Assembly (NCBI GenBank): GCA_964510585.1
Contig: CAZECW010000126.1
Coordinates: forward strand, 1 to 32,000
Source: an uncultured archaeon
GTDB lineage: Archaea; Asgardarchaeota; Jordiarchaeia; Jordiarchaeales; Jordiarchaeaceae
Length of the DNA: 32,000 nt
Direction: 5' to 3'
The translations under genes were made by a program, and so were the position numbers. Below are positions 151 to 28,705 of the stretch, in pieces. Every line of letters begins with the position of its first letter. The first letter of the stretch is position 1. A model generated the notes under the pieces. The model made no database searches. It was not told the DNA's origin and saw nothing but the letters and a program-made list of their open reading frames with translations.

Positions 151-341
151 TTTTATCACTATTATTACTTACGATGAAGCAACACTCCAACCTTTCGGTT
201 AAAATTGCACAAAAGACTTTTTACGCCCTCAACCATAGACATAAATGTAAGTTTTAATGTTTTATAGTTAAAAGTGACATGTTGGTATTGTAAAAATTGT
301 TTTAATTAAAAATGCATTATTTTTTGAGTGGAGATGCACTA

Positions 342-3300: not shown

Positions 3301-3767
3301 TCAAATTTACCCATCCAACCAGAGAAATATTTCAGGGCCCCCTAAAATCAAAGTATAAGGAACTCAACACTATGCTGGAAAAGGTAGAAGCTCAGTTGGA
3401 ACTATCAAACAAGATAAGAGCATCGAACGCAAAGATGGTCGCCATTAAAATAACTCAAAAACATTTTATCCGTGACATTGCAGGCAACTTAAAAGCGTTT
3501 TCCACACAAAAAAGTCGATGCCTAAATTGTAACAAAAAGTATAGGCGTCCCCCTCTTCAAGGAAAATGTACATCCTGCGGGGGAAAGCTGGTTTTAACAG
3601 TACATCAAGCAGGAATAGAAAAGTACCTTCCCTTTGCATTATCAATTGCGGATAGATTTGATTTGCCACCATATATAAAACAGAGATTAAACCTGCTGAA
3701 GCAAAACATTGGTTTAATATTTGAAGAGGAAAAGGTTAAACAAGCAAAGCTGAGTGAATTCTGCTAA
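342..3767 (+). CDS. polC: DNA polymerase D large subunit DP2
   Basis: Motifs YFAGPIRSAGGT, RLRYGRSRNTG, catalytic AKRRNCDGDED, Cys4 zinc fingers. ORF track starts at 312; ATG 342 follows an SD-like GGAG. No intein at RRN/CDGDED. Confidence 0.98.
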   Translation: MMNASKEMLEYFKTIETSFDNLYNIVREARGKGFDPSIEPEILTAKDVAARVEGLIGLKGVADRIRELSTKMARDEVAFKIAEEVVYRKIGNINNDEEVADKAIRLALALLTEGVTAAPIEGIADVRIKRNPDNTEYLAIYFAGPIRSAGGTEQAKTVLVADFVRRLLHLDRYKPTDDEIERFVEEVDLYEHRVTHLQYPSTPDMIRRVLKNLPVEVTGEPTDTIEVSGHRNLPRIETNQLRGGAILVLNDGLIGKASKIKKIVDRMGFEGWEWLSESKEKKEKLEVKPSATYLADVIAGRPVFGEPSATGSFRLRYGRSRNTGLSAVGINPATMIVLDEFLAPGTHIRTERPGKGAIVLPVDSIEGPIVKTLDGSVVKINTVKEAMEVAKKIDKILFLGDLLVAFGEFLENNHPLVPSAYCEEWWIQELKKKISEKFGEDIQGASSFIGVNKERLERMIEDPFYFKPTAKEALNISEALGVPLHPEYTYYWHDIHADEAIELQKWLEKVEVNEKGEIASKAPKGIKEILERLGVPHKFKDNKIIISEHTPVLMRCLSKNKVGQKISFYQFGEGMSGLDVVKSLCDIPIRERAPIYVGARMGRPEKAKERMLSPPVHVLFPVGLEGGSTRNIVKAAEKGVISIEVAKRVCPECETVTFNTFCPSCKKETLSINTCLQCGFSQNVAACPKCGGKMLPYETRKINIKDELQKAMRRIGEEKVTEVKGVRGLISEAKIPEPLEKGILRAKYDLYVYKDGTVRFDATDAPLTHFTPKEISVPVEKLRRLGYTHDYKGMPLENENQIVELKPQDVIISENCANYLVRVANFIDDLLTKFYMMPAYYQIKSLGDLVGHLIIGLAPHTSVGIVGRIIGFTKAQVCYAHPYWHAAKRRNCDGDEDSIMLALDPLLNFSKLFVPKKRGGMMDTPLVISVHLDPQEVDSESHNMDIMAQYPLEFYEKTLNYEDPKNNEKLIDIIAHRLGKPEQYENFKFTHPTREIFQGPLKSKYKELNTMLEKVEAQLELSNKIRASNAKMVAIKITQKHFIRDIAGNLKAFSTQKSRCLNCNKKYRRPPLQGKCTSCGGKLVLTVHQAGIEKYLPFALSIADRFDLPPYIKQRLNLLKQNIGLIFEEEKVKQAKLSEFC

Positions 3768-4564: not shown

Positions 4565-4661
4565 GGGCGCATGGTCTAGCGGTTATGACACCGCGTTCAC
4601 ACCGCGGTAAATCCTTTTTTGGGGAGCCGAATCCCCGGTTCGAATCCGGGTGCGCCCACCA
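4565..4661 (+). tRNA. tRNA-Val(CAC), 21-nt intron at 46/47 (4611-4631), CCA encoded
   Basis: Acceptor GGGCGCA/TGCGCCC, anticodon arm CCGCG-TTCACAC-CGCGG, T arm CCCGG-TTCGAAT-CCGGG. BHB helix CGGT/GCCG with bulges AA|A and AA|T. Spliced length 76 nt. Confidence 0.93.
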
Positions 4662-4969
4662 TAAACTCTTTATAAATCGTTAAATATTTAAGAAAACATT
4701 TGAGTTTAATAAAATGACGGCTAAAATGTCCCTTTAGTTTTAGGGTAACTTTTGTAGCTGCAAGTTGGAGGAAGTGTTTTCCCCTCTTTTTAACATCTTT
4801 TTTACAAAAAGGTGGAGAAGTAGTTTTGGAGGAAGGCAAAAAACATTAACCTCAAAATAAGCTATCCCGCCTCCTAAATGATTTTGTTTAAACAATGGGT
4901 TTGCTTGTCCAATTTTTGAAATAAATTTATATTTGGGACTTAAAACAATAAGTTGATGGAGGTTAAATT

Positions 4970-5167
4970 TTGCCGAAGGAAATATTTGACACTGAGAAAT
5001 TCGTTGAATTATCCGAAAATGCTACTGAGTGTCGTATGAAAGTTTTAGGTGACAATGAAGTTAAATTTAAACTCAGAACTAATAAGTATCTTTACACTTT
5101 AAAAGTTGATAAAAAGAAGGCTGAAGAATTAAGAGGCAAAATTAAGTGCCCCATTACTGAGCTTTAG
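4970..5167 (+). CDS. rpl38e: Ribosomal protein eL38
   Basis: MPKEI...VKFKLRTNKYLYTLKV is the eL38 signature. TTG start after GGAGGT. Confidence 0.92.
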   Translation: MPKEIFDTEKFVELSENATECRMKVLGDNEVKFKLRTNKYLYTLKVDKKKAEELRGKIKCPITEL

Positions 5168-5184
5168 AAGCATATTCCCCACAG

Positions 5185-5736
5185 TTATACCTCTAGACTT
5201 TTGATTTTTTCGTTAATTTTAGATTGGCACTTCTCACAAAAATTTTTGCTTTTTCTATCAGTGTCCAGTATGTGATTTGAAAAATGCATCACGCACCGGG
5301 GGTTTGGGCAGTGATTCAAAAAGAAGGTATGTCCTAATTCATGAACTGCTTCTTTTGTACAACGTTCAATAAAGATTTTTTCGTCCTTGGCTTGCCCATA
5401 GAATTCAGATCTGAGCCTATGGATGGATATTACGCATACATTGCCTTCCAAAGTGGCTTGGCCAAATATAAAATTAAGCCCCTTTGTGTAAAGGTCTACC
5501 GGTGTTATTCCCAGAATTTTGGAGTTTTTATTAGTAGCATAAATTTTTAAGGCTTCCAAAAAATGTGAAGAATTGTACTGTTGTCTGGAGAAATTATAAG
5601 CCTCCTTAGGGATGGGGAGTATACCAGAAATTTCGACTCGCAAAGGATAGAATATGACACTTAGTTCTTCTCTTAGCCTTTCAAGCAGATTACTCTCAAT
5701 TTCCCCAATTTTTACAAGAACTATTCTAGGTTTCAA
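5185..5736 (-). CDS. amzA: Archaemetzincin Zn-metalloprotease
   Basis: LNFIFGQA, KEAVHELGH, HCPNPRCVMHFSN...D...FCEKC. Confidence 0.92.
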   Translation of the reverse strand: MKPRIVLVKIGEIESNLLERLREELSVIFYPLRVEISGILPIPKEAYNFSRQQYNSSHFLEALKIYATNKNSKILGITPVDLYTKGLNFIFGQATLEGNVCVISIHRLRSEFYGQAKDEKIFIERCTKEAVHELGHTFFLNHCPNPRCVMHFSNHILDTDRKSKNFCEKCQSKINEKIKSLEV

Positions 5737-6214
5737 GTTTTTATCCTCAATGAAACTAATTAAATAAAATAAATAAAAGTATTATGATAATTATTCTACT
5801 TATTAATTTAAATTGCGTTGATTTACCTTTTTGTCATTCCAGTGGTTGAGAGCGGTCCTTAGTTCTGAAATGATGGAACCCTAAAAATAATAGTAAAAAA
5901 CTGATATGAGCTGAAAATCCGATTAATTTTTCACGAGTCAATGCTTTAAACCTCACGAAATGGTCGTAAAAGGTTTTTGGCGCCACTTGTGTGTAGAAGC
6001 TTTTTCTCGTCAGTTTGCAGCTTTCTAAAAGCCCTTATCCTTCTTCTTGCTCAGATGAGTCCGTTTTGTGGCTTTTATGGGAGGGGAGCTTCTCAAGAAA
6101 CCAGCTACCATAAAGATAACCAAGACCCGAAAATCAGAGTTTTTATGTTTCACAAAATTTTATTAAAAGGTTAAGCCACTATTTTTTTAACCATAAACAA
6201 AATGGGGTTCCACG

Positions 6215-6508
6215 TTGTCAAAAGAGCTTCTACAAAACCTCATCAATAGGAAGATATTAAACGAATTTGGAAAGAAGGTTGGGCAAGTATTAGATTTAAT
6301 AATTGATAAGAAAAGTGGCAAGATACAAGCAGTTGTAGCAAAGGTAGACAAGTCCGAAGAAATCCTACAAAAATTAACAAAAGACGAAAAGGGGAATACT
6401 TATATCCCGTTTTCAGTAATTTCTATTATTAAAAACGATTTTCAGATAGACGAGAAGAAGTTGAGATTAATTATTCTAAAAAAGAAAACAGCTTGGCAAG
6501 AATCGTAA
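6215..6508 (+). CDS. PRC-barrel domain protein
   Basis: LINRKILNEFGKKVGQVLDLIIDKKSGKI and IPFSVISII match the PRC-barrel pattern. TTG start. Confidence 0.8.
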   Translation: MSKELLQNLINRKILNEFGKKVGQVLDLIIDKKSGKIQAVVAKVDKSEEILQKLTKDEKGNTYIPFSVISIIKNDFQIDEKKLRLIILKKKTAWQES

Positions 6509-6583
6509 AAACCTTTTTTTCCAACCAATTACCCAACAATATTTTCGTGGAGAATAAATACCATACTACGAGAATTTTAAGAG

Positions 6584-7954
6584 ATGACTATGATTGCACA
6601 AGGAAAAATAAAATCGGTAGTGGACAGAAAATACAGGCCGAGAAGGGAGAGAAAAGAAAAAGATGCAATTAATACCCTCAAAGAAGAGCTCGTGGAGTTC
6701 ATGCTCGCAAATGATCAGCAAATACTGGAAGATTACAAAAAATTACAAAGTCAACTAGACTCTCTGGATGGGATAAGGGAAAAGCAATTCTGGCAGCATC
6801 TTCAAGAAGCTTTGAAAACTTTTAAACTGGATGAACCACAAAAAGCGGGCAAAATTCTTGAAATAGTTAAAAGTCTACTTCAAAGTTACACTATAAGACT
6901 GAATTCCAGCGATGTTAAAATACTCGAAGCAATTTATCAGCAACCACTTCTAACACTAGAGGGCATATGTTCAGTTACTAAACTTAGCTGGGGGACAGTT
7001 CAAAAAAGATATAACCAACTAGCGGGCAGCCAAGTTTACAAAACAGTAGCAGTCCCCAATTATGACAAATTAGGACTTGCACCAATAATAGTGCTTACCT
7101 CGGACAGTGAAAGAGAAATATCCAGTCCATATCTAACATCAATTCAAATAAATAACGGTTGGTGTAGCACCAATAGATTATGGGAGATGTTAATACCTAA
7201 ATCAAATCTCCAAGAATTTGCAAAAATCATCTTAAGACATTTGCAAAACTCACGAATATTTGAAAGATCATTCTTACTCCATAATGTTAACTTCACTTAC
7301 TTTGATTGTGGCAGCAGAAGCTGGAATATTAATTGGTCCCAATGGCAACTAGAACTAGAAAAAGAGGAAACTGTCAAGGTTATTTTAAACAATGAAAACT
7401 ACCACAGAAAACAGAGAATCAAAAGAATGGACTTGAAAATTCTACACTTTTTGACACAAAATCTTAGAAGGGAACAAAGAGAAATCGCCCAAGCCCTAAA
7501 TACCAGTGAATCAAAGGTATCCCTCTGCAAAAAAAATTTATACAATGACAAATACTTCACTCCCGTTTTGCAACTCACAAATAGAGCGGGGTTAACCGAA
7601 AACCTTCTCATTATATTAAAGGAAAAAATCCAAGAAATACCCTCTGCCTTCTTGAGACTCCCTCAAACAACAATTTATGAACTAACTGAATATAGCAGCA
7701 AAACAAAACAAACTGTAATTCAAACCCAACTTCCACCCGGTTCAAAAACAAGAATCAAAGAAATCCTAGAAAGAAAAAACCCCGACACCCAATTCTCAAA
7801 CTACACAATTCGAATAGAAAGCTTTCCCGAAACAATCACAGAGGCTTTCGATGATAAGAACCAAAATTGGATGTGGGGCCCCTCAACTCTCAAAATATAC
7901 CACAAAATCAATCGAAACCTAGAATCCCCCTATTATCAAATCCCGAAAATTTGA
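6584..7954 (+). CDS. Protein with two AsnC-like winged-HTH modules, putative regulator
   Basis: 456-aa ORF with two HTH-like segments: DVKILEAIYQQPLLTLEGICSVTKLSWGTV and DLKILHFLTQNLRREQREIAQALNTSESKV. Confidence 0.7.
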   Translation: MTMIAQGKIKSVVDRKYRPRRERKEKDAINTLKEELVEFMLANDQQILEDYKKLQSQLDSLDGIREKQFWQHLQEALKTFKLDEPQKAGKILEIVKSLLQSYTIRLNSSDVKILEAIYQQPLLTLEGICSVTKLSWGTVQKRYNQLAGSQVYKTVAVPNYDKLGLAPIIVLTSDSEREISSPYLTSIQINNGWCSTNRLWEMLIPKSNLQEFAKIILRHLQNSRIFERSFLLHNVNFTYFDCGSRSWNINWSQWQLELEKEETVKVILNNENYHRKQRIKRMDLKILHFLTQNLRREQREIAQALNTSESKVSLCKKNLYNDKYFTPVLQLTNRAGLTENLLIILKEKIQEIPSAFLRLPQTTIYELTEYSSKTKQTVIQTQLPPGSKTRIKEILERKNPDTQFSNYTIRIESFPETITEAFDDKNQNWMWGPSTLKIYHKINRNLESPYYQIPKI

Positions 7955-7996
7955 GCATCACATTTTTTTAAAGATTCTCGTCAACAAGTTTGTCGA

Positions 7997-9007
7997 TCAA
8001 CTCAGTTTAGCCCCAAGAGCATCCCACAACTGTTCCCTAACCAAAATTCCCACATTAACCTTTTCTCCCCCCCTTCTTACCAATATTCTCCTGCTTGGAG
8101 TAACCCGCCCAATTATAGTAGGGATACTTCCAACAGACCTAATAGCATCCAAAGCCTCAGCCTCCCCCCCAGGTCTGACGGTAACCAATAAAACTCCACT
8201 GGAAATTAAACACAAAGGATTTATTCTCAAAAGGGAACATATGTCCCGCGTCTCTTCTGCAACCGGAACCAATTCCTCCTCAATCCTAAAACCTACATTC
8301 GAAGCCTTAGCCATCTCAACTAAACCCCCCAGCAAGCCCCCTTCAGTTGGATCATGCATTGAGGTTACGACTCCAGTTTCATTAACAGCCAAAGCTTCTT
8401 TCACAACACTCAGACTAGAAAAGAAAGACTTTGCCTTTAACAGAAGTTTTTTATTTAAAAATTCACTCAAATCCTCGAAACGATCTGTAGCAAGAATCGC
8501 AGCCCCCTCCAAACCTGCGTGTTTAGTCATAATTATAACGTCATCAGCTCGCGCCCCACTTGTTAACACTAACCTCTCCTTAGTGGTTTCGCCAAACATG
8601 GTCCCACAAAGCAGAGCATTTTCCAAGTAAGGTACTACCTCAGTGTGCCCACCAACAACACAAACTCCTACCTCGCGGGCGGCCTCGTCTATATCCCTAC
8701 AAATCTTCTTCAGAAAACCGGTATCAGCTCCATTAGGTAATAGAATAGTCGAAGTGAAGAATTGTGGTACAGCACCTCTCACTGCCACATCGTTTGCATT
8801 TACATGAACTGCATACCACCCCATTCTGCTCTGAGTGCCAGTAATGGGGTCTGCGCCCACAACTAATAACTTTTCTCCAAAATCAATAACTGCTGCGTCT
8901 TGACCCACAGCAGGGCCACAAATCACCCTACCACAATTAACACCACCGTAGGGGAAAACAATCTTCTCTAACAAATTGTTGGGAACCTTGCCAATGGGCA
9001 GTTTCAT
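7997..9007 (-). CDS. AIR synthase-related (PurM/HypE/ThiL fold) protein
   Basis: GQDAAV, DPITG, VNANDVA, GGHTEV, MHDPTEGGL motifs. Confidence 0.9.
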   Translation of the reverse strand: MKLPIGKVPNNLLEKIVFPYGGVNCGRVICGPAVGQDAAVIDFGEKLLVVGADPITGTQSRMGWYAVHVNANDVAVRGAVPQFFTSTILLPNGADTGFLKKICRDIDEAAREVGVCVVGGHTEVVPYLENALLCGTMFGETTKERLVLTSGARADDVIIMTKHAGLEGAAILATDRFEDLSEFLNKKLLLKAKSFFSSLSVVKEALAVNETGVVTSMHDPTEGGLLGGLVEMAKASNVGFRIEEELVPVAEETRDICSLLRINPLCLISSGVLLVTVRPGGEAEALDAIRSVGSIPTIIGRVTPSRRILVRRGGEKVNVGILVREQLWDALGAKLS

Positions 9008-9132
9008 AAAACCACCAGTTCAAACCTAAAGAAACTAATTACTAAAACGAAGAAACAAGTCAATACTTAAACCTGAGGGTTGCCTAACAAACAGTGGCCA
9101 AAAAATGAGAATAGAGAAATAAGGGTAAAAAC

Positions 9133-9197
9133 GCAAACTCAACACTCAAGATCGTCGTCATCTTTTAGTCGGAGGGGTCAGATTCATCATCGTTTGC
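9133..9197 (-). ncRNA. Box C/D guide sRNA candidate
   Basis: Terminal stem GCAAAC/GTTTGC, box C ATGATGA (9190-9184), D' CTAA, C' ATGACGA, box D TTGA (9142-9139), guides of 15 and 12 nt. TATA TTTAATAA about 24 nt upstream. Confidence 0.8.
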
Positions 9198-9221
9198 ACA
9201 TATTACATATACCCTTTTTGC

Positions 9222-9229
9222 TTATTAAA
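9222..9229 (-). promoter_or_regulatory. TATA box for the C/D sRNA
   Basis: TTTAATAA on the minus strand; archaeal spacing puts the start near 9198. Confidence 0.55.
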
Positions 9230-9266
9230 TAGTATCTCTTCCTCACCAATAGTTTTCTATGGCTGG

Positions 9267-10208
9267 TTAGGAATGGATACTATAAAGTTTAGCTGCCGCC
9301 TTGCCCATTATTATTTCTATTTCTTTTGGGCTGAACTCTATTCCTGTAGGTGATTTGGGGGTCTTTACCGCATTCACCCAGTCTTTGAGGGGCATTAGTA
9401 CGTTAAGCATAGAACCGTCAGTTCCAAACAGAACTCTCCAGGGCCCAATTAGATCAATGGCCATTCTTAATGGGTACCAAAGATAATCGGGGTTGCTAGT
9501 ATAGAGGGGTTGCCATCCCGAGAAATCCAAATAAATGTTTGGTTTCATAGTAGCAATGTCTACCGCTTCCCTCCACCAGCCATGCCCCATGTGCGCAATA
9601 ATTATTTTGAGTTCTGGGAAGTCAGCGGCAATGGTGTCAATGTATTTAGGCTGCGAATACTTTACCGCCATGGGGGCTGGCTCATTCCCAGAGTGAATCA
9701 ATACCGGCACACCATATTCTTGAGCCCGTTCATAAATAGGATAACAAATAGGATCGTCTGGATAAAACCCTGCAGTTGGATGTATTTTTAATCCCTTCAT
9801 TCCCCACTCTTCAATACCTTTTTCAAATAATCTTAAAGCATCCCTTCTTCGAGGATCAATCCCAAAAAGAGAAAGTAGGCGGTTGGGATATCTTTCAGTA
9901 GCCTCAGCATAAATTCTATTCTTCTCCTCCATAGTTAAACAAGCCCCAGATGCTTTTGGATACTTGAGCCAGAAGTCAAGAGGAAGAAGTATAGCTTTAT
10001 CAACACCCGCCTCATTCATCGCCGCCACCAATTTATCACCTGTCCTGTCACTCAGGATACCCAAAAAATACTTGTAAAGCTCCACAGGATCGGAATACTC
10101 ACCAGTCTCCTTACCAAAAAGGGCAGACGCGACTCGAGCACAACCCACAAAAAATTCTTCGGGGTCAGAACCTTCAAAAAACAAGTGAACATGACTATCA
10201 ACAATCAA
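9267..10208 (-). CDS. Amidohydrolase family protein (amidohydro_2 type)
   Basis: IVDSHVH (DxHxH), GLKIHP, IHSG, IIAHMGH, VLFGTDG. TTG start. Confidence 0.9.
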   Translation of the reverse strand: MIVDSHVHLFFEGSDPEEFFVGCARVASALFGKETGEYSDPVELYKYFLGILSDRTGDKLVAAMNEAGVDKAILLPLDFWLKYPKASGACLTMEEKNRIYAEATERYPNRLLSLFGIDPRRRDALRLFEKGIEEWGMKGLKIHPTAGFYPDDPICYPIYERAQEYGVPVLIHSGNEPAPMAVKYSQPKYIDTIAADFPELKIIIAHMGHGWWREAVDIATMKPNIYLDFSGWQPLYTSNPDYLWYPLRMAIDLIGPWRVLFGTDGSMLNVLMPLKDWVNAVKTPKSPTGIEFSPKEIEIIMGKAAAKLYSIHS

Positions 10209-10357
10209 AAACCATCACCACCAAAGTCACATCAAACAGTATCCCAATACAAATATGAAATAATAACGTTATTCACAAAACTCCCTAAAAAACTAACGTA
10301 AAAAATTCCTTACAGCCCAAATTAATCATAAATATAAATAGTTAGAAGGGATTGGAC

Positions 10358-10485
10358 TGCGGCTGCCGGGAATTTCGAAAAAGGGGGGCCCTCTTTTTTT
10401 CGAACCCGGGTTACTGGCTTGGGAGGCCAATGTCCTAGACCAGAATGTCCAATAGTTACCCATACTATTTCTGGACTACAGCCGC
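10358..10485 (-). tRNA. tRNA-Gly(CCC), introns at 15/16 (10445-10470) and 59/60 (10372-10398), CCA not encoded
   Basis: Acceptor GCGGCTG/CAGCCGC, anticodon arm TTGGC-CTCCCAA-GCCAG. BHB helices GTCC/GGAC and TTCG/CGAA. Spliced product (75 nt) matches the architecture of the Gly(TCC) gene in this window. Confidence 0.92.
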
Positions 10486-10572
10486 TCATTGTTGTTTTGA
10501 ACTTGGTTTCATAAATTTTTTTTGGTATTCCTTTTGCATTTGCGAGAGTGACTTGTATGGCTTCAAAAATTG

Positions 10573-10599
10573 AAAAAGAGGGCTATTATTGCCCTCTTT
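10573..10599 (-). terminator. Hairpin plus T-run, possible terminator downstream of EF-2
   Basis: Minus strand AAAGAGGGC-AATAATA-GCCCTCTTT followed by TT: 9-bp perfect stem about 160 nt after the EF-2 stop. Confidence 0.35.
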
Positions 10600-10760
10600 A
10601 TGGCGAACGCCGAGCACCTAACTAACCTGAAACAAATCACATTCCCTAAAAAATACATAACCAAGCAGATCTACATAAGCTAGGTCCTTTTCTTGGTTTA
10701 ATAAAGAAACAAAACGTTCTGGTTGTTTCAGCTTTTTATTACCTTTATGAAAATAGGGGT

Positions 10761-12962
10761 TTAGAGTGTGTCTATGTATTCTGAAGCTTCTGGTGGTTCT
10801 GGTTTAAGTCCTTTTCTCTTGCGGATTTCTGCTATTACTTCTTTCGCTAAGCTTTTCGGTAATGCTTCCCATCTTGTGAATTGTGTTTGCCAGAAGGCTC
10901 TTCCGGAGGTTTTCGAACGCATGTCGTTAGCTAGTCCAAATGTTTCTCTAACTGGTATTTCTCCCGTTATGAAGGTTAGTGGGCCCTTCTGCTGCACATC
11001 GATTACGCGGCCTCGTCTCTGTGATAGTATGCCTGAAACCGTGCCTATGTAATCCTGGGGAATAGTGATTTGGATTTTGTAAATGGGTTCCAATAATGTG
11101 GGTTCGTCGCTTAGAAACGCGCCCCATATTGCCCTTCTAGTCATGGGCATTATTTGGGCTGGGCCTCTGTGAATGGGGTCTTCGTGGAGCTGGCAGTCTG
11201 TTATGTTAATTCTTATACCTCTTATTGGTTCCTCGGCTAACGGGCCTGCCTCAGTAGCCCACCTGGCTCCTGCTATCATGGTGTCTTTAACTTCTCTCAA
11301 ATATTGAACTCCTTTAGTTTGGTCTACAATTATGTTCACGTGTTCATCTATCGCCCATACGTTTCTTGCGTCCTTAGCATCCCAACCAGCCTTTTCTCTC
11401 AGAATTTTGGTTCTAGTAGCTGCGTCCTGATATTCAGATATTTCCCCATTGACTATAAGATCAATGGTCTCTTGGTTAAGCGGTTCTACAGTTATCCAAA
11501 CTCTACTATGCTTGTTAGGGCTTTTACCCAGTATTGGACCAGCAGGACTGGTGACTGTTTCGCGATAAACAACTATGGGCTGGGAGGTCACTACATCCAC
11601 CGCTGACTGTATTTCCTTCACTGAGATTTCAAGATGAAGTTCACCCATTCCCGACAACAGGTACTCGCCAGTTTCTTGATTAATAGTAGTCACAAGGTTG
11701 GGGTCTTGAATGGACAATTTTTGCATCAGGTCAATGAGCTTCGGTAAGTCCTTAGGATGTTTCGGCTCAACAGCTATCGTGATTACAGGTTCTGAAACAT
11801 ACTTGATTTTTTCAAAAGGAACCATCTGATCTTTTATGCTTTCACTAACCACTGTTTCACCAGCCCTAGCAATGTCCAAACCCAATAAAGCTGCTATGTT
11901 GCCTGCTGGGATGGTGTCCACAATTTCTCGTCGAGCACCCATGTAAATACTCGTCTGTTGCACACGGTAACCTTTCTTACCCATAAGAAGATAGACATTG
12001 TCCCCTTCACTTATAGTTCCAGAAAAAACTCTTCCAGTTGAAACAATTCCCGCATGTGGATCCACAACAACTTTATTGAGACATATCACAGTCGGTGCAT
12101 TTTCATCACAGGCCTTCATAGCTTTTCCAATTTCGCTCTCTGGATCACCAAGCCAAATCTTGGGAATTCGATAAGGCTGAGCCTCTAAGGGGTTAGGCAA
12201 GTGGTTCACAAACATATCCAAAATTGCTGAGTGTACAGGAAGTATCTCCTTCAAATCTTCAAAATGCTCATTACTATAATACGCAACAATATCACTGAAC
12301 TTTAACCCCTTCTCCTGCATCTGAGGGATGGTAAAACCCCAACCGTGAAGCGCAGAACCAAAAGCAACAGAACCCGCTGCAGGATTCACCTTCCACTTAT
12401 CCTTAAACTCCTTTTCCCCATAAGTATCTATGAGCCCATTGAAATCCCTTATTATCCTATTAAGCTTCTCCTGCACCTGAGGAGCATCCAACTTAAGCTC
12501 CCGAATCAAACGATCAATCTTGTTAATAAAAAGCACAGGTTTAACCCTTTCCCCTAATGCCTGCCTAGTCACCGTCTCTGTCTGAACCATCACCTCCTCA
12601 ACAGCATCAACCACCACAAGCGCACCATCAATAGCACGAAGCGCCCGCGTAACATTACCAGTAAAATCAACATGGCCCGGTGTATCAATAAGGTTGATGA
12701 CGTATGATTTCCCCTCGATATCGTGTAGGAGGGAAATGTTTGCAGCCTTTATTGTTATGCCTCTTTTCTGTTCTTCTTCCAAGTAGTCTAGTGCCCTTGC
12801 TTCTCCTGCGATGCTGGGAGATAGTAACCCTGCCTCTGCCAATAATGAGTCGGAAAGAGTTGTTTTACCGTGGTCAATGTGTGCAATTATTCCCGTATTT
12901 CTTATGTGTTCCTTGTCTCTCATTAGCTTCAATATTTCCTCGGTTTGTTTGAATCTTGGCAT
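10761..12962 (-). CDS. fusA: Translation elongation factor 2 (aEF-2)
   Basis: AHIDHGKTT, RGITI, DTPGH, NKID, GSAL, GMGELHLE; diphthamide loop HEDPIHRGPAQ intact. ATG 12962 follows SD GAGGTG (ORF track uses GTG 12971). Confidence 0.98.
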   Translation of the reverse strand: MPRFKQTEEILKLMRDKEHIRNTGIIAHIDHGKTTLSDSLLAEAGLLSPSIAGEARALDYLEEEQKRGITIKAANISLLHDIEGKSYVINLIDTPGHVDFTGNVTRALRAIDGALVVVDAVEEVMVQTETVTRQALGERVKPVLFINKIDRLIRELKLDAPQVQEKLNRIIRDFNGLIDTYGEKEFKDKWKVNPAAGSVAFGSALHGWGFTIPQMQEKGLKFSDIVAYYSNEHFEDLKEILPVHSAILDMFVNHLPNPLEAQPYRIPKIWLGDPESEIGKAMKACDENAPTVICLNKVVVDPHAGIVSTGRVFSGTISEGDNVYLLMGKKGYRVQQTSIYMGARREIVDTIPAGNIAALLGLDIARAGETVVSESIKDQMVPFEKIKYVSEPVITIAVEPKHPKDLPKLIDLMQKLSIQDPNLVTTINQETGEYLLSGMGELHLEISVKEIQSAVDVVTSQPIVVYRETVTSPAGPILGKSPNKHSRVWITVEPLNQETIDLIVNGEISEYQDAATRTKILREKAGWDAKDARNVWAIDEHVNIIVDQTKGVQYLREVKDTMIAGARWATEAGPLAEEPIRGIRINITDCQLHEDPIHRGPAQIMPMTRRAIWGAFLSDEPTLLEPIYKIQITIPQDYIGTVSGILSQRRGRVIDVQQKGPLTFITGEIPVRETFGLANDMRSKTSGRAFWQTQFTRWEALPKSLAKEVIAEIRKRKGLKPEPPEASEYIDTL

Positions 12963-13477
12963 TACTAACACCTCATAGCGTTGAGCGTCTTGGCATTCTA
13001 AGCGTAGTGAGTTATACTAAAGATTTTTGTGGAATTCTACATTTTTTATAAATATCCTTAGAAACCCAATTATGGTAAGCAACGCCTAGAAAAATGCCTC
13101 ATATTTTTATTTCATAACACCTAAAATAGTAATAGCTTCCCGATTTATGTTTTACTCATTTATATTTTTTGCTAATGGGATTGCCGATAGCACGAACATT
13201 TACTCAACTCTTCCTAGAGATTTTCCTGAGTACCTTTTGGCATAAAGGAACAGATATGCATTTTTAGTGTCTAGTTGGGTGTTTGTATTTTTGTTTATGG
13301 GTTGTATATAAAATCGGGTTATACGTTAGTTTGCAAATAAGTCTCAATAGAAGAGTTAAAAGAACTTCTACATATAAAGGCACGACTATTAAATTGGGTT
13401 AAGAAAATGTTGAAAAACTTTTTATACTGTGCCTCGCTCTTCAACTCATCTAATTCAGTACATTGGAGGAGTTCTCA

Positions 13478-13816
13478 GTGACTGCAGTGTCGCTAGAGGT
13501 ACGGTGTGAGGTTGAACAGGCCGGCGAGTACCAAAAATATGAATACCTTGTATATGATATCTATGGAATTGGGGTTATTGGTTACGGAGTTGTTTACCAA
13601 AAAGGAAATAACGCGGAGATAAAGATTATAAACGTTGACCGCTTCCACAGAGGAGAAGGCATCGGAAGTTCATTGCTTCAGAGGATAATTAGTGATCATT
13701 CGGAGAGAACCATCTATGTAAGGACCTTTGAATCGCTTGTTCCTTGGTACGAGAAATTTGGCTTCAAACTATACTCCGAACCATTATTATTAGTGAGACC
13801 TTCATCTGTGGTTTAG
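13478..13816 (+). CDS. GNAT family N-acetyltransferase
   Basis: VDRFHRGEGIGSSLL (acetyl-CoA motif A) and WYEKFGF. GTG 13478 lies 8 nt after GGAGG. Confidence 0.85.
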   Translation: MTAVSLEVRCEVEQAGEYQKYEYLVYDIYGIGVIGYGVVYQKGNNAEIKIINVDRFHRGEGIGSSLLQRIISDHSERTIYVRTFESLVPWYEKFGFKLYSEPLLLVRPSSVV

Positions 13817-14184
13817 AATGGGCCACCACACTCTCCCATAGAAGAAGTAAGAAAGTGTATAGGGCTATTTTAGTGGGTCTTTACCAGTAAAAAATCAGGT
13901 ACAAGACCTTCCCCCTTTTCTTTTATTTTGTCCCATTTATTACATATTTTTGGCGAATATCTTTTTCCAAATTCTGCTTCCTTTAAACTATATTTCCCGA
14001 AAACCCAGCTAGAAAGGGCCTCCCTCAACTTGCTAATTTTTTAGAAACCGGGGAGATGTGGACAAAGTACAACCTATTTTTTAATCTTCTTTAAATTGAA
14101 GGTGATTCTGGGTTCTCCTCCTTCTTTTTTTGCATTTTTCAAAACTATATTTTTCGCTGGGCTTATTTAAGATGTGTTCAGGTA

Positions 14185-14778
14185 TTATTCTGATTCGCAG
14201 ACTCCTTCTTTTGCCAATCGGGAAAGTTCTTCTCGTCCTTGTATGAACCCTCGGGCGATTAGGGTGTCTTTTTCTTTTAGTTTGAATGAATCGGGCGGGT
14301 TATAGTACCATTTCTTGCCCCTACGGACTGCTATTATTCGCATCCCTATTTTATCATCCAGTGCAGCTTTTCCTATCGTCTTATTTACGAGGGGGGAATC
14401 CTTATTGAGGCAAACTCGGGTTATTGTTTCCTCTGCCTGCTCAAAAACCAGTTTCAAAACTGGGTGGGGCTCAATACCTCTCAGAACTATGTCTGCTATG
14501 TATGCTGCGGCGTCAGCTATATTTTCTGATGCTACTCCAATTCTGATTAATCCCAGCTTTGTTTGTGGATTAATTAATTCGTCTTTAATATTCAGAACAG
14601 CTAGTTCAAAATCTACGTGTAATTTATCAAAAAACTTTTCCAGATTGGAAAGCTCCTCCGCTATTTCTTTGCTGTTAAAGAGAAGGGCAGAGTAGGCCAA
14701 ATCCACCATCAGTTCCGAGGTGTTCTTCATCTCAACCAACATATCCTCTATCGATTTTAACCTCTGTTCAGACTTCAT
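14185..14778 (-). CDS. PhoU plus TrkA-C domain protein (paralog 2)
   Basis: EMKNTSELMVDLAYSAL, ENIADAA, and TrkA-C IGMRIIAVRRG...D.LIARG. Confidence 0.88.
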   Translation of the reverse strand: MKSEQRLKSIEDMLVEMKNTSELMVDLAYSALLFNSKEIAEELSNLEKFFDKLHVDFELAVLNIKDELINPQTKLGLIRIGVASENIADAAAYIADIVLRGIEPHPVLKLVFEQAEETITRVCLNKDSPLVNKTIGKAALDDKIGMRIIAVRRGKKWYYNPPDSFKLKEKDTLIARGFIQGREELSRLAKEGVCESE

Positions 14779-14780
14779 TT

Positions 14781-15389
14781 TTACTCTTCCCCTCCCAATA
14801 ATTTACCCGCCGCAAGAGCTTTAAACCTTTCAATACCCACATCTGAACCCCGGGCTATTACCACATCACCGGGCTCCAACATAAATTTCTCATCAGGATT
14901 AATAATTAACCTTTTCCCACGCCTAAGCGCTATAATATCCACACCCACACGGTCAACCCTACCAAGCATATCTAATGTTTTATTAACAATCGAGGAATTT
15001 TCAGAAACCTTAACACGCGCCAAACGTTCTTCAGCCTTAACAAAAGCACTTATCACCAGTCGAGGATCAGCCCCACGAAGTATCGTTGCCGCAATGTCCC
15101 CAGCAGCATCAGAAATTTTATCTGTCGCTGAGGCAACCTTCATAATACCCACAATCTGCTCCGCATCGTTCTTGTCCCTCACAGCAAGAGCCGCATTCAT
15201 AAGAAGCAGATAGCTGAGCGAATCTATTCGCTCCTCCAGCTCCAGGACTTCCTCTACCAATTCAGAATCATTAAACATTATAGCGGAATAAGCCAAATCA
15301 ATCATTAACTCAGAAATATCCTTCATCTCGGTAAGAAGTTCCCTCACACTCAGTGGCTTATACTCTATCTCTTCCTCTTCATCTGCCAC
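14781..15389 (-). CDS. PhoU plus TrkA-C domain protein (paralog 1)
   Basis: EMKDISELMIDLAYSA, DKISDAAGDIA, and VGVDIIALRRG...GDVVIARG. Confidence 0.88.
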   Translation of the reverse strand: MADEEEEIEYKPLSVRELLTEMKDISELMIDLAYSAIMFNDSELVEEVLELEERIDSLSYLLLMNAALAVRDKNDAEQIVGIMKVASATDKISDAAGDIAATILRGADPRLVISAFVKAEERLARVKVSENSSIVNKTLDMLGRVDRVGVDIIALRRGKRLIINPDEKFMLEPGDVVIARGSDVGIERFKALAAGKLLGGEE

Positions 15390-15786
15390 TAGTTAATCCT
15401 CCTACAAAATGACAAAACAACAATACAACCACTTGAAGCCAATTTTATTTATTGCAGTCTCACGTATAAAAACAAGTAACAACAAAATAAAAGTTTCCTC
15501 AAAACACTCAAGAATGCCTTTACCTGTTTTAGAAAATCATTCGGCACTAACCCAAATACATACTATACAACAATTTTAGAATTATTCCTCATAATTATCA
15601 AATAAAGTGAAATTATCACAAAAATAGTAAAATAGCCGATTTTCACCCTCAAACTAGAAAGAAAAATTAAAAGGCGCTTATCACCCCTTCACTGTATAGA
15701 ACTGTTAAATGATGAATCAAGCCCAATACATTACTCTTCAAAAAACGCATCACTCTCCAATAAATTTTTTATTAGGTGATTTCGCG

Positions 15787-16965
15787 ATGACCATAGTTTC
15801 AATAGTAAAAACCAATGGAAATGTTGAAGAAGGCGTCAGAAAAGCGGTAGAATTAGCAGGCGGCATCGACATAGAACCTGGCGCAAACATCCTCATAAAA
15901 CCCAACCTCAGCTGCGCCAAACCATCAGGAAGCGGCCTAGTCACAAGCGTCGAAGTCATCTCCGCTATGGTAAGACTGGTAAAAGAGATGGGAGGCAAAC
16001 CCCTAGTCGGAGACCTACCAATCGCCGGCTGGGACCCAAAGGAAACATACAAAGTAACCGGAGTCAAAAAAGCAACAGAAGATGCCGGCGGACAATTCAT
16101 CGACTTCAGCAAAGATCAACCCGTAACCATACAAATCCCAGATGCCGTAAAACTAAAAAGCGTAAAGCTAGTACGCACCGCACTCATCGCCGACGCCATA
16201 ATCTCCCTACCCGTCCTCAAAGCACATTTCTTCACAGGACTAACATTATGCATCAAAAACCTAAAAGGACTCACACTACAGGACCAAAGAACAAAAATGC
16301 ATGTCCTAGGCCTATACGACCCTATAATTGACCTCTTTTCAGCTCTGAAAAGCAAGGTGATATTTGGATTAGTAGACGGCACGGTGGGCTGCGAATCAAT
16401 AAGACCCTCCGGACCATACTACGGCCCCACCGAAGGAAAACCCATAAAACTTGATACCCTCATAGCAGGAAAGGACATCGTGGCAGTCGACAGTGTAGCG
16501 GCAGTAACTGCAGGAATAAAGCCCAAAAGCATGAAACTACTCCAAATCGCCTATGAGAGGGGACTAGGAGAAATAGAAGACATAGAAGTAAGAGGAGAAA
16601 AAATAAAGCCCCAAAAACTGAAACAAACCCTATTTGGGCGAGTCATGGGCAGTCTAAACAGCCTGTGGACGTCCAAAATTGCCAACCCCATAACTCACCC
16701 CCTAGTAAAGCGCCTTTTTGGACCACAGGTGCAAAGTCTACGATCCGTTGAAAAAGAACTCCAAGAAGTCGTTCCCAGCAAAATAGTGCTAGCCGGCAAA
16801 TGTGACAATTGCGGAATATGCGTCAAGAGCTGCAGCATAGGCAACATAAAACTGGGCAAAAACGGACCAATAATAGGCGATAAATGCTTGGTGTGCTTAA
16901 TATGCGTTGAAGCATGCCCTCTAAATGCTTTGGCGGTTAAAAGGGTTGAGGAGGTTTCAGCTTAG
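15787..16965 (+). CDS. DUF362 protein with C-terminal 2x[4Fe-4S] ferredoxin domain
   Basis: ILIKPNL, ISLPVLKAH, LCIKNLKG, DIVAVDS, CDNCGICVKSC, CLVCLICVEACP. ATG 15787 after AGGTGAT. Confidence 0.9.
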   Translation: MTIVSIVKTNGNVEEGVRKAVELAGGIDIEPGANILIKPNLSCAKPSGSGLVTSVEVISAMVRLVKEMGGKPLVGDLPIAGWDPKETYKVTGVKKATEDAGGQFIDFSKDQPVTIQIPDAVKLKSVKLVRTALIADAIISLPVLKAHFFTGLTLCIKNLKGLTLQDQRTKMHVLGLYDPIIDLFSALKSKVIFGLVDGTVGCESIRPSGPYYGPTEGKPIKLDTLIAGKDIVAVDSVAAVTAGIKPKSMKLLQIAYERGLGEIEDIEVRGEKIKPQKLKQTLFGRVMGSLNSLWTSKIANPITHPLVKRLFGPQVQSLRSVEKELQEVVPSKIVLAGKCDNCGICVKSCSIGNIKLGKNGPIIGDKCLVCLICVEACPLNALAVKRVEEVSA

Positions 16966-18363
16966 TAGCCAGTTGGGTTTTCCTAGATAGTATTTTGTTA
17001 AAAATTCGGCGAAGTCCGGATTTTGGAGGTAGATGTTGGATATTTCTGTGTTTAGGAGGATTTCGAATTTTTGGGAGATTTTTTCTGCGATGTATTTTCC
17101 GAGGCCTAGTGTTTTTATTTTGTTGCGGATTTCGTGGTCTAGTAGTTTGTCGGCTCTAGTGTGTTGGCGTAGGAGTTCTACTATCCATTTTCCATTTTCT
17201 ATTCGGGGTCCGGATACTGTTTTGTCTGATTTGGTGTGTTTTTTTAGGAAGGGGGGTTGGCCGATGCTTCCGGGTGGGGGGCCTAGATGTTTGTATGTTT
17301 TGGGGATTGTTATGCTTTCAAACTCTAGTATTAGGATTGTTTTTTCTTCTCCGGACCAGGCGTCTTTGTTGATTATTTTGAAGTCTTTGGATTCTAGGAA
17401 GTTTTTGAGGGCGTCGAGGGATTTGTAGATTTGGCCCCATAGGGTGTCTGGTGGGATTTTGGGTGTTTCGAATGTTAGGAATAGGGTGTCGGTTCCTTTT
17501 TTGTCGTGGAGGTTTTGGAGTTCTTCAGGGCTGAAGGGTTTGATTTTGTTTGGGAAAAAGAAGGTTTCTCGTGGTTCTTCTAGGAAGGCTTTTGATGCTG
17601 CTTTGAATTCTCCGATTTTTTGTTTGGTTAGTGCTGCGGAGACATTTCTTTTGGGGTCTACTGGGTCAATTACCACTAGTGGTTCGGAAAAAATTTTTTT
17701 AATTTCTTTGGTGTTGGTGTAGTGGTTTTCTATGTCTATGATGTGTTGTGGTTTCCATTTGATGCATTCCTCGAGGAGGCGTGGGAAGGATGAGTAGTGC
17801 ATCATCAAGATTTCGCACAGGTATCCAGAAAATCCTCCAATTCTTATTTCGGCACCATAGGCATTTATTCCCATTAGGAATTGTTTCAGAAGTCTTACTT
17901 CTCTTTTTAAAGATTCGTTAAGATTTTTTTTGATATAGGCGGTGTGGAGTGGGGTTCTGTCAACTGAGGAGACTAGTTCCGTGGCGTCGCTGATCTCGAA
18001 GCTGGGAACGAAATCAACTTGGAACTCCTCTATTTCGGCACGCAGGTATGGGTGTTCGGCATATTTCTCCTCGCCTTTTCCTCCTGTTACTTTTCGCGCA
18101 ATTTTTAATCCTAATTCTCCGATCTCTTTATAGGTGTAGGTTCTCGGAAAAACCATGAAAATATCGATGTCTGGATTTGTTTTTATCCAGGTGTCCTTTG
18201 CTATGGAACCTACAAGTAAGGGATTGACGGTGATGTTTAGATTCACCGCTTCTTCCCTCACCCTTCTAATTAACTCTTGGGATAGGCGTTCTACTTTCAT
18301 TCTATCTTCTGTTGAAGGTGTAATTTTCTTGGATACCTTTTCGCACACTGTTTCTAAATCCAA
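16957..18363 (-). CDS. cca: CCA-adding enzyme (class I)
   Basis: GSIAKDTW...DIDIF, AEHPY, VDFVP, VDRTPLH, GGFSGYLCE, DPVDPKRNV. TTG 18363 after GGGGAT. Confidence 0.97.
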   Translation of the reverse strand: MDLETVCEKVSKKITPSTEDRMKVERLSQELIRRVREEAVNLNITVNPLLVGSIAKDTWIKTNPDIDIFMVFPRTYTYKEIGELGLKIARKVTGGKGEEKYAEHPYLRAEIEEFQVDFVPSFEISDATELVSSVDRTPLHTAYIKKNLNESLKREVRLLKQFLMGINAYGAEIRIGGFSGYLCEILMMHYSSFPRLLEECIKWKPQHIIDIENHYTNTKEIKKIFSEPLVVIDPVDPKRNVSAALTKQKIGEFKAASKAFLEEPRETFFFPNKIKPFSPEELQNLHDKKGTDTLFLTFETPKIPPDTLWGQIYKSLDALKNFLESKDFKIINKDAWSGEEKTILILEFESITIPKTYKHLGPPPGSIGQPPFLKKHTKSDKTVSGPRIENGKWIVELLRQHTRADKLLDHEIRNKIKTLGLGKYIAEKISQKFEILLNTEISNIYLQNPDFAEFLTKYYLGKPNWLLS

Positions 18364-18409
18364 AGTTCGATCCCCAAAAATACACGATACCAATTATAGA
18401 TATTTAGAC

Positions 18410-18967
18410 TTAAGGTACACTTCTTAGTGTACTGTATTTGGGTCCTTTCGGGGTGAGTTTGCTTTCCTTTAAACGAATGGAGTTTACTGTCATGGTTCCG
18501 ATTTCTAGAGATGAAAGGTTGGAAATTAATTTGGCTAGCTTGTCTTTATTATGTACACTTTTCACCCTGGCAATGGTTGCATGTGGGGTGTATTCTCTCC
18601 CTTCGGGTTTAAATTTGAGCTTTCTAATCTGTGTTTCTAAATCGTTGTATATGCGAATAATCTCCTCTTTACCTTTCCGGGCTCCTACCCAAATATTATT
18701 TATTCTGGATAAACTGGGAAAGCAGCCTACTCCATAGAGTTCAAGTTCTATGGGTGTGAATTCAATGCTCTTCATACCTTCGTAAACTTTATCGACCATT
18801 GCAGGACTGATATTATCCAGAAATCTGAGCGTAAAGTGAAGATTTTCTGGTTCCACGAGTTTTAGCTTGGCACCTGTTTTTGCTAGCTCCTGTTGGATAT
18901 CGAGAATTTTTTGAACTAAATTATTATCTTCGATGTCAATCGCTATGAATGCTCTAATGCCTTCCAG
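18410..18967 (-). CDS. thpR: RNA 2',3'-cyclic phosphodiesterase (2H family), probable CTG start
   Basis: Two HxT motifs (LHFTL, PHAT). N-terminal IRAFIAID lies in frame upstream of the GTG used by the ORF track. In-frame TAG at 18982-18980; CTG 18967 is 8 nt after AGGAGG. Confidence 0.92.
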   Translation of the reverse strand: MEGIRAFIAIDIEDNNLVQKILDIQQELAKTGAKLKLVEPENLHFTLRFLDNISPAMVDKVYEGMKSIEFTPIELELYGVGCFPSLSRINNIWVGARKGKEEIIRIYNDLETQIRKLKFKPEGREYTPHATIARVKSVHNKDKLAKLISNLSSLEIGTMTVNSIRLKESKLTPKGPKYSTLRSVP

Positions 18968-27894: not shown

Positions 27895-28020
27895 GGGCTC
27901 ATAGCTCAGTGGAAGATTCCCAAAAAAGGAAGCCAAGAGCGCCTGGTTTGCAGCCAGGAGGCCGCGGGTTCAAAACCACAGAGAAAAACTCAAAAGGTGA
28001 AACTCCCGCTGAGTCCACCA
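27895..28020 (+). tRNA. tRNA-Ala(TGC), introns at 22/23 (27916-27937) and 59/60 (27975-28003), CCA encoded
   Basis: Acceptor GGGCTCA/TGAGTCC with G3.T70, anticodon arm CCTGG-TTTGCAG-CCAGG. BHB helices TGGA/GCCA (relaxed) and TTCA/TGAA. Spliced length 75 nt. Confidence 0.9.
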
Positions 28021-28154
28021 ACCCCACCACAAAAAAACACGAAACAAACACCACCCCCCACCAAAAACCCTACAACTACCCCAACCCTCACCTTCAAAAA
28101 CCCTACACGAAAAACTTAATTATCTCAAAACAACACAAAAGTTAACACCAAAAA

Positions 28155-28230
28155 GGGCGAGTAGTCTAGCGGCTATGACACCGCCTTGACGTGGCGGAGG
28201 TCGCAGGTTCAAATCCTGCCTCGCCCACCA
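28155..28230 (+). tRNA. tRNA-Val(GAC), intronless, CCA encoded
   Basis: GGGCGAG/CTCGCCC, CCGCC-TTGACGT-GGCGG, GCAGG-TTCAAAT-CCTGC. Confidence 0.97.
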
Positions 28231-28252
28231 CCCCTTCAGAAAAAACAAAAGA

Positions 28253-28260
28253 TTTAATAA
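28253..28260 (+). promoter_or_regulatory. TATA box for tRNA-Phe
   Basis: AAAAGA followed by TTTAATAA; predicted start about 28283-28285. Confidence 0.55.
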
Positions 28261-28311
28261 GTTGTGAAAAAAACTTGTTTTTGCCGTCGTCCAAATTCTC
28301 CCAGGATAGGT

Positions 28312-28472
28312 GCCGTCGTAACTATTCACAAAGAATAGCGACAAGCTTAGCCCGGGAGAGCGTCGGATGCTGCCAGAATCCCTGACAGAAGACGAAACTG
28401 AAGATCCGATTGTCGCTGGATGCTGCCAGAATCACTGACAGAAGGCGACTTCAAATCCGGCCGACGGCACCA
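28312..28472 (+). tRNA. tRNA-Phe(GAA), introns at 9/10 (28321-28344), 30/31 (28367-28396), 53/54 (28420-28449), CCA encoded
   Basis: Spliced: GCCGTCG TA GCTT AGCCCGGGA GAGC G TCGGA CTGAAGA TCCGA TTGTC GCTGG TTCAAAT CCGGC CGACGGC ACCA (77 nt). BHB helices GTCG/CGAC, CGTC/GACG, CGCT/GGCG. Confidence 0.92.
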
Positions 28473-28597
28473 CACAATAAACCCCACCTTGAACCTCCTT
28501 TTCACAAACTCGATAGCACTAGTTTCAATCATAACTAGGCTCACTTTGAAAATTTCCTGTCTCCACCCTCATTCTTACAGTTTAGTAAAAGTAGGTT

Positions 28598-28705
28598 TGG
28601 TGCGGCTGCCGGGAGTCTCGGATAAAGGCTGCTCTCCTTCCTCATTCGAACCCGGGTAACGAGCTTGGAAGGCTCGGGTCCTAAACCAGGCTAGACTACA
28701 GCCGC
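28598..28705 (-). tRNA. tRNA-Gly(TCC), 30-nt intron at 59/60 (28615-28644), CCA encoded
   Basis: GCGGCTG/CAGCCGC, CGAGC-CTTCCAA-GCTCG. BHB helix TTCG/CGAG with bulges AA|T and AC|T. Spliced length 78 nt. Confidence 0.93.

Follow-up and report, generated by a model that had tools for sequence, protein, structure and literature searches.

Contig CAZECW010000126.1 of assembly GCA_964510585.1 begins with a stretch of 32,000 nt (positions 1 to 32,000, forward strand), hereafter the window, that carries eight transfer RNA (tRNA) genes, seven of them interrupted. The analysis of these genes and of the genome around them indicates, with a probability of about 0.9, that they belong to a hot-spring member of the Jordarchaeia in which nearly every tRNA gene is split by one to four short introns spliced by proteins, an organisation that has already been published for the lineage. 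The source genome (G000) is a draft metagenome-assembled genome (MAG) of 3.78 Mb, 96% complete and divided into 217 contigs. It was compared with five sister assemblies of the same genus (G001-G005), one of which (G005) is the closed Freyarchaeia genome tabulated by Valentin-Alvarado et al. (2024, Nat Commun; PMC11291895).

All eight tRNA genes lie between positions 4565 and 28705, the range given in the original prediction, which was made from the letters and open reading frames alone, and the intron map that it proposed was reproduced exactly. The seven interrupted genes contain 13 introns of 21-32 nt, 360 nt in total, inserted at ten positions (9/10, 10/11, 15/16, 22/23, 29/30, 30/31, 45/46, 46/47, 53/54 and 59/60) and never at 37/38 (Table 1). 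ARAGORN and Rfam at gathering score detect three of the eight genes, Val-CAC, Ile-GAU and Val-GAC, the first two reaching 56.9 and 60.5 bits in Rfam with their inserts in place. A permissive Rfam scan adds weak partial matches only, at 23947-24013 (minus strand) and 27895-27972; the scores were 21.8 bits for the initiator, where the match is partial, and 19.6 bits for Ala-UGC. Neither program matches Gly-CCC or Phe-GAA. These two genes, together with initiator Met, Ala-UGC and Gly-UCC, were found by inspecting the G+C-rich intergenic islands. Boundaries were placed by the register of the BHB (bulge-helix-bulge) motif, by the cloverleaf and by orthologues. In the register used, the 5' exon ends with four pairing bases plus two, the intron likewise ends with four pairing bases plus two, and the 3' exon begins with a single bulged base.

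Table 1. Features of the window; introns are listed with coordinates, length and position in the mature tRNA.
Feature	Position	Strand	Details
tRNA-Val(CAC)	4565..4658	+	intron 4611-4631 (21 nt, 46/47); CCA encoded
tRNA-Gly(CCC)	10358..10485	-	introns 10445-10470 (26 nt, 15/16), 10372-10398 (27 nt, 59/60)
Initiator tRNA-Met(CAU)	23947..24110	-	introns 24071-24100 (30 nt, 10/11), 24036-24065 (30 nt, 15/16), 23991-24019 (29 nt, 29/30)
tRNA-Ile(GAU)	24286..24392	-	intron 24314-24345 (32 nt, 45/46)
tRNA-Ala(UGC), G3:U70	27895..28017	+	introns 27916-27937 (22 nt, 22/23), 27975-28003 (29 nt, 59/60)
tRNA-Val(GAC)	28155..28227	+	no intron; Rfam 68 bits, 73 nt
tRNA-Phe(GAA)	28312..28469	+	introns 28321-28344 (24 nt, 9/10), 28367-28396 (30 nt, 30/31), 28420-28449 (30 nt, 53/54)
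tRNA-Gly(UCC)	28601..28705	-	intron 28615-28644 (30 nt, 59/60); BHB core 4/4 + 5-bp T stem
Paralogous introns 30/31 and 53/54 of tRNA-Phe	28365..28448	+	31-nt direct repeat (28365-28395, 28418-28448), 94% identical
Upstream copy of initiator 5' acceptor strand	24104..24132	-	TAGCGGGA at 24125-24132, again at true 5' end 24104-24111
Degenerate tandem copy of Phe exon 1 and start of intron 1	28282..28310	+	28 nt, 71% identity, spacing 29
EndA-family subunit	19612..20208	+	Pfam tRNA_int_endo_N, tRNA_int_endo
CCA-adding enzyme (cca)	16957..18393	-	Pfam tRNA_NucTransf2, CAA_C, NTP_transf_2
LigT/ThpR-type 2H phosphoesterase (thpR)	18410..18979	-	Pfam LigT_PEase, 2_5_RNA_ligase2
DNA polymerase D large subunit (DP2)	312..3767	+	Pfam PolC_DP2_N, central and catalytic domains, E down to 1e-143

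The first line of evidence that the inserts are BHB introns is that their removal in silico restores the genes, ARAGORN calling all eight products as full-length tRNAs with the expected anticodons. The second is the motif itself. The 4-bp BHB core is perfect at 10 of the 13 genomic boundaries, and at 11 after removal of the first intron of the initiator, whereas boundaries shifted by 2-10 nt gave a perfect core in 2.1% of 5382 cases. Every counted insert lies within the mature sequence and has at least three of the four core pairs at the exact boundary. The core is complete (4/4) in Val-CAC, where it is joined by a 5-bp intron helix, in both introns of Gly-CCC (with a 6-bp helix and with 5+5 bp, respectively) and in all three introns of Phe-GAA. 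Ala-UGC combines a 4/4 core with a 5-bp T stem at 59/60 and a 3/4 core with 4 bp at 22/23, the latter intron having equivalent registers back to 27913; the relaxed motif of Ile-GAU consists of a 3/4 core and a 3-bp helix. In the T-loop introns (59/60) the T stem serves as the outer helix, which results in a motif of 4+5+2-5 bp.

Comparison with the five sister genomes provided the third line of evidence. Exon sequences hardly vary, whereas the introns differ in sequence as well as in length, and the bases predicted to pair across the boundary change together. In both Gly genes, T-loop position 57 of the exon carries G in the window and A in G005, matched in the intron by C and U, respectively; GTCC is found with GGAC or GGGC. 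Both introns of Gly-CCC are kept in G002, G003 and G005 with compensatory changes. Six clean differences in intron presence were identified within the genus. The Val-CAC intron is cleanly absent from G005, and the 29/30 intron of the initiator is absent from G005 and G002. Other introns are found in the relatives only: an additional 28-nt anticodon-stem intron in Ile-GAU of G005, a 53/54 intron in Ala-UGC of G002, a fourth intron, at 59/60, in Phe of G005, and a 32-nt T-loop intron in Val-GAC of G003. The last insertion (32-33 nt) is also carried by related strains from hot-spring metagenomes; it was gained or lost recently within the genus, so that even the sole intron-free gene of the window has an insertion in a close relative.

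The genome-wide intron count that the original prediction had proposed as a check extends the pattern to the rest of the genome. The Rfam tRNA model yields only seven matches over the cut-off in the source genome, six of which carry an insert. A search of our own was built on T-loop motif seeds; both the T stem and the 7-bp acceptor stem had to be perfect, and BHB-supported introns at 59/60 or 53/54 were allowed. It located 32 credible tRNA genes and none in the reversed-sequence control. As many as 31 of the 32 are interrupted; gene lengths span 73-311 nt (median 133 nt), and the only gene of 78 nt or less is Val-GAC, the sole uninterrupted tRNA gene located in the genome. The 59/60 intron occurs in 15 of the 32. 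A parser guided by the BHB motif gave a solution for 21 of the 32, and their rough average is 2.3 introns per gene. The 3' CCA is encoded by 23 of the 32 genes and, in the window, by all but Gly-CCC. Compact reference tRNAs were also sought in other Asgard genomes, where too few were compact.

These results bear on two alternative explanations. The interrupted loci might be decaying pseudogenes, with functional, compact copies at other places in the genome, a suspicion raised by the failure of standard tools on five of the eight genes and by a draft broken into 217 contigs. This is very improbable, since a single compact tRNA was found in the whole genome, the complete sister genome is likewise devoid of compact copies, and the loci of the window would be the sole genes for Phe, the initiator and others; furthermore, it is the inserts that change between species, whereas the exons are conserved, and the BHB pairs covary. 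That the source is a MAG could also suggest that the inserts are artefacts of assembly or binning, that is, chimeric joins between metagenomic sequences. Such an origin is hardly credible: the same architecture recurs in five further assemblies from the genus, one of them a closed chromosome that long reads have validated (PMC11291895), and independent metagenome contigs span the tRNA loci unbroken.

Some observations weigh against the interpretation of the inserts as protein-spliced introns. The Ile 45/46 and Ala 22/23 introns pair at just three of the four core positions, and several introns are devoid of an outer exon helix, so that the enzyme would need a relaxed specificity. The genome-wide intron counts depend on a home-made parser, which mis-split at least Gly-CCC. 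The runs labelled as RNA consist of contigs only and come from a relative about 94% identical; no joint in them matched a predicted splice, which speaks neither for nor against splicing. From the genes, the motifs, the restoration of the cloverleaf and the conservation and turnover of introns within the genus, we infer actual cleavage and ligation, as well as the order of splicing discussed below.

The initiator tRNA has A1:U72 and three G:C pairs in its anticodon stem. Its first two introns are separated by a micro-exon of 5 nt, GGTAG (24066-24070), and the spliced 75-mer shares 68 of 75 positions, ungapped, with a compact orthologue from the sister family. The cores of introns 1 and 3 are complete, that of intron 1 being perfect in G000, G003, G005 and G002, and the minimum free energy (MFE) fold around intron 1 shows a 3-nt bulge and a 9-bp inner helix. 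The core of intron 2 has three of four pairs before the removal of intron 1 and four of four after it, and this holds in all four of these genomes. Because intron 2 completes its helix only when intron 1 has gone, it is a reasonable inference that splicing follows a forced order, with intron 1 leaving before intron 2. A different exon assignment, in which an upstream copy of AGCGGGA would be the acceptor strand and the inserts would measure 15 and 65 nt, was dropped in favour of the downstream copy, which fits the 68/75 identity and the perfect BHB cores in four genomes.

The tRNA-Phe gene provides a different kind of evidence, on how introns multiply. In an all-versus-all comparison of 53 introns from the genome, its 30/31 and 53/54 introns were the only outlier, with a score of 25 against a shuffled maximum of 14. 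Each copy has an exon-pairing tetranucleotide that suits its own exon, GACG with CGTC in one case and GGCG with CGCT in the other, and both the gene and the paralogous pair are conserved in G003 and G005. Judged by this similarity, the pair is a within-gene intron duplication. Tests for intron families across different tRNA types would miss an event of this kind. Whether the two introns evolve in concert is hinted at by the identity matrix of the six 30-nt sequences, which is too small a sample to decide it.

Phe and the initiator also each have, in the leader, a copy of their own 5' acceptor strand. In the repeat search, the initiator copy matches 8 of 8 nt at a spacing of 21 and it is conserved in G001-G005. 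The Phe copy is likewise kept throughout the genus: the 8 nt that belong to the acceptor do not differ between G000, G003 and G005, the spacer has an indel, and in the MFE fold the copy is paired to the intron's 3' end. In both genes the core helix of the first intron uses acceptor-stem bases, 4-7 or 5-8. Since the first intron borrows these bases, the leader copy could hold the 3' acceptor strand during splicing, and a function as a placeholder strand is possible. The copies were rejected as introns, because an identical, non-palindromic sequence occupies both flanks and a BHB core would not be expected to form across direct repeats of this type.

The existence of these copies gives some weight to a third explanation, according to which some inserts, chiefly the ones whose BHB core is imperfect and the upstream copies, are local tandem duplications that are removed by other means (RNase P in the case of leaders) or simply tolerated. 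The Phe upstream copy is a duplicate of exon 1 and the intron start, 71% identical; an upstream copy in front of tRNA-Tyr (contig C4, minus strand, about 25592-25620) is a 15-nt tandem duplicate of the 5' end of that gene and is missing in G005; and the repeats themselves are at odds with BHB formation. In addition, some D-arm insertions are described as having no canonical motif (bioRxiv 10.64898/2026.10.13.758758). These arguments concern leader copies that are not among the 13 introns, all of which have three or four core pairs, and for this reason tandem duplication is a rather unlikely source of the inserts, albeit the most serious of the three alternatives. Splicing by proteins at BHB motifs thus stays the preferred explanation for the 13 introns.

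The enzymes expected for this type of splicing are encoded in the genome. Two EndA paralogues, 31% identical, were found, one in the window and one on contig C157. By comparison with EndA of M. jannaschii, the window protein keeps Tyr115 and Lys156, has Thr at the position of the catalytic His125 and is devoid of a 9-residue loop present in its paralogue; it is probably the non-catalytic, structural (beta-like) subunit. The C157 protein has the complete Tyr/His/Lys triad and aligns end to end with the catalytic subunit of A. pernix (3P1Z_B, E 3e-45), the 9-residue loop being aligned without gaps. Two distinct subunits, one of them with the full triad and the loop, fit an (alpha-beta)2 EndA as far as their sequences tell, the type known to cut non-canonical introns (PMC5829648). 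The original prediction had placed cca, thpR and endA in the window. All three were confirmed by Pfam, with the correction that this endA product has lost the catalytic His and that the catalytic paralogue is on C157. The C157 gene (L121:1468-2046, minus strand) adjoins a tRNA gene with four introns; a gene for a hydrogenase maturation protease is located two genes from an EndA gene in Atabeyarchaeia-1 as well.

An RtcB ligase (578 bits) is also present. Its gene contains an insert of 30 nt (contig C58:3762-3791; L127:363-392) that brings a TGA stop into the conserved Pro-Asp-Ala-His motif. The 4-bp BHB core of this insert is perfect (CCCG with CGGG), and excision restores ...LPDAHQGYGFPIGG...; given the stop codon, the mRNA of the splicing ligase would itself need splicing of the tRNA type. 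When the whole window was scanned under strict BHB criteria for introns within protein genes, about 65-80 matches per strand were returned against 22-37 in shuffled sequence, too many to single out candidates. The best-looking match, a 25-nt segment at 795-819 within polD, was rejected, the Pfam domain being unbroken there.

Taken together, these elements can be arranged in a tentative pathway. The pre-tRNA would fold locally so that four exon bases upstream of the 5' site pair with four intron bases upstream of the 3' site. The resulting 4-bp helix, flanked by two 3-nt bulges, would constitute the BHB motif, often in a relaxed form that dispenses with one outer helix. An (alpha-beta)2 endonuclease, composed of the catalytic C157 subunit and the His-less subunit of the window, would then cut two bases into each bulge, and RtcB would join the exons. 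In the initiator, intron 1 would be removed first and intron 2 afterwards.

The phylogenetic placement, which the original prediction had listed as the other check, was obtained from EF-2. The protein is 100% identical to that of 'Candidatus Jordarchaeia archaeon QZM_A3', a MAG, 99% identical to other MAGs named Jordarchaeia or 'Ca. Freyarchaeota', and 89% identical to that of the closed Freyarchaeia-1 chromosome (CP147778); identity to Bathyarchaeia is 63-68%. By EF-2 identity alone, the source is an Asgard archaeon of the class known as Jordarchaeia, Freyarchaeia or, in GTDB, Jordiarchaeia. The public runs that contain DNA of the window are hot-spring metagenomes.

Besides the tRNA and splicing genes, the window encodes DP2, an RpoG/Rpb8-like protein and the two other RNA-processing enzymes listed in Table 1. 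The stop-to-stop frame of thpR covers 189 aa and includes both H-x-T motifs. The frame is open from 18979 and takes in the N-terminal strand RAFIAIDI, with no ATG, GTG or TTG until 18856; possible starts are a CTG located 8 nt downstream of GGAGG or a later ATT codon. The intergenic region 9137-9192 (minus strand) has a weak Rfam match to the archaeal box C/D small RNA sR23 (19 bits, E 1.1).

The original prediction had interpreted the intron load as an independent expansion in a lineage that encodes DNA polymerase D (PolD) and is distinct from the Thermoproteales. The interpretation holds: the organism is an Asgard archaeon by EF-2, PolD is present, and independent gain is the conclusion of a preprint of October 2026 (bioRxiv 10.64898/2026.10.13.758758). 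The implied novelty does not, because the load had been reported for the lineage in 2024 and again in 2026. Valentin-Alvarado et al. (2024; PMC11291895) described introns in 92-95% of the tRNA genes of one Freyarchaeia and two Atabeyarchaeia genomes, often non-canonical and with more than half of the genes containing several, and provided a table by gene. The preprint, a study of 90 Asgard genomes, singled out the class Jordarchaeia/Freyarchaeia, counted 2.0-2.4 intervening sequences per gene in both of its families and concluded that introns had been gained there many separate times, independently of Atabeyarchaeia and in a pattern that differs from that of Thermoproteales; its census is limited to the genes that tRNAscan-SE detects. 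The paper that named the Jordarchaeia makes no mention of introns. The extreme intron load is therefore a confirmation of the known biology of the lineage, correctly deduced by the original prediction but not new.

What the published catalogues may miss is found in the details of single genes. The published Freyarchaeia table (Supplementary Data 4 of PMC11291895), whose coordinates match G005, comprises 38 tRNAs and lists no Phe, initiator Met, His, Cys or Glu. G005 nevertheless carries orthologues of the Phe and initiator genes of the window, near 1547.6 kb and 1729.3 kb, which indicates that their absence from the table is a failure of detection. We tentatively suggest, at somewhat less than even odds, that the catalogues overlook four things: the fragmented Phe and initiator genes, a micro-exon with an obligatory order of splicing, a Phe intron copy re-tuned to its new exon, and placeholder strands in leaders.

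The intron load has a bearing on how introns are gained, on the limits that RNA structure sets to where they persist and on the reach of protein-only splicing. To this, the present analysis adds the independently verified intron map of another species. Phe and the initiator are concrete cases of the blind spot in current censuses, genes too disrupted for tRNAscan-SE, and the duplication of the Phe intron is relevant to the question raised by the preprint of how introns arrive. If true, the copying of this intron would be a rare direct trace of intron spread in Asgard archaea.

The closest known systems are the Freyarchaeia and Atabeyarchaeia genomes. Freyarchaeia belong to the same class as the organism described here, and Freyarchaeia-1 to the same genus. 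The resemblance includes two EndA paralogues, interruption of 92-98% of the tRNA genes by mostly non-canonical introns, 2.0-2.4 insertions per gene and the dominance of sites in the D and T arms. Freyarchaeia-1 is, however, another species and comes from wetland soil, in contrast to the hot-spring origin of the window. At the level of single genes, the published table of G005 agrees with the window for Gly-CCC (two introns at the same sites), Gly-UCC (one, same site), Ala-UGC (two, same sites) and Val-GAC (none), and departs from it for Val-CAC (none versus one here) and Ile-GAU (two versus one here). The case that the original prediction had named as refuting it, a lineage already documented with the same intron map, is largely realised; the published map of the sister genome is similar to the present one and not identical.

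The second comparison is with the (alpha-beta)2 EndA of A. pernix (PDB 3P1Z, 3AJV; PMC3241643). The C157 protein shares with it the triad and the loop that has been termed Crenarchaea-specific. Unlike the A. pernix enzyme, the second subunit, encoded in the window, keeps both EndA domains together with Tyr and Lys, and has lost only the His. The third is with the Thermoproteales, whose multi-intron tRNA genes are described by Sugahara (2008) and Fujishima (2010). In both groups, genes contain several non-canonical BHB introns that depend on an (alpha-beta)2 enzyme, and copying may carry an intron to another site where the pairing strand is adjusted, the Phe 30/31 and 53/54 introns being the present example. 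The Thermoproteales are nevertheless an unrelated lineage, whereas the organism studied here is a PolD-encoding Asgard archaeon, and its intron load exceeds theirs, with about 2.3 introns per gene estimated here against 1.54 in Pyrobaculum calidifontis. Moreover, intron families common to different tRNAs make up 28% in Thermoproteales and 1.5% in Asgard archaea (bioRxiv 10.64898/2026.10.13.758758).

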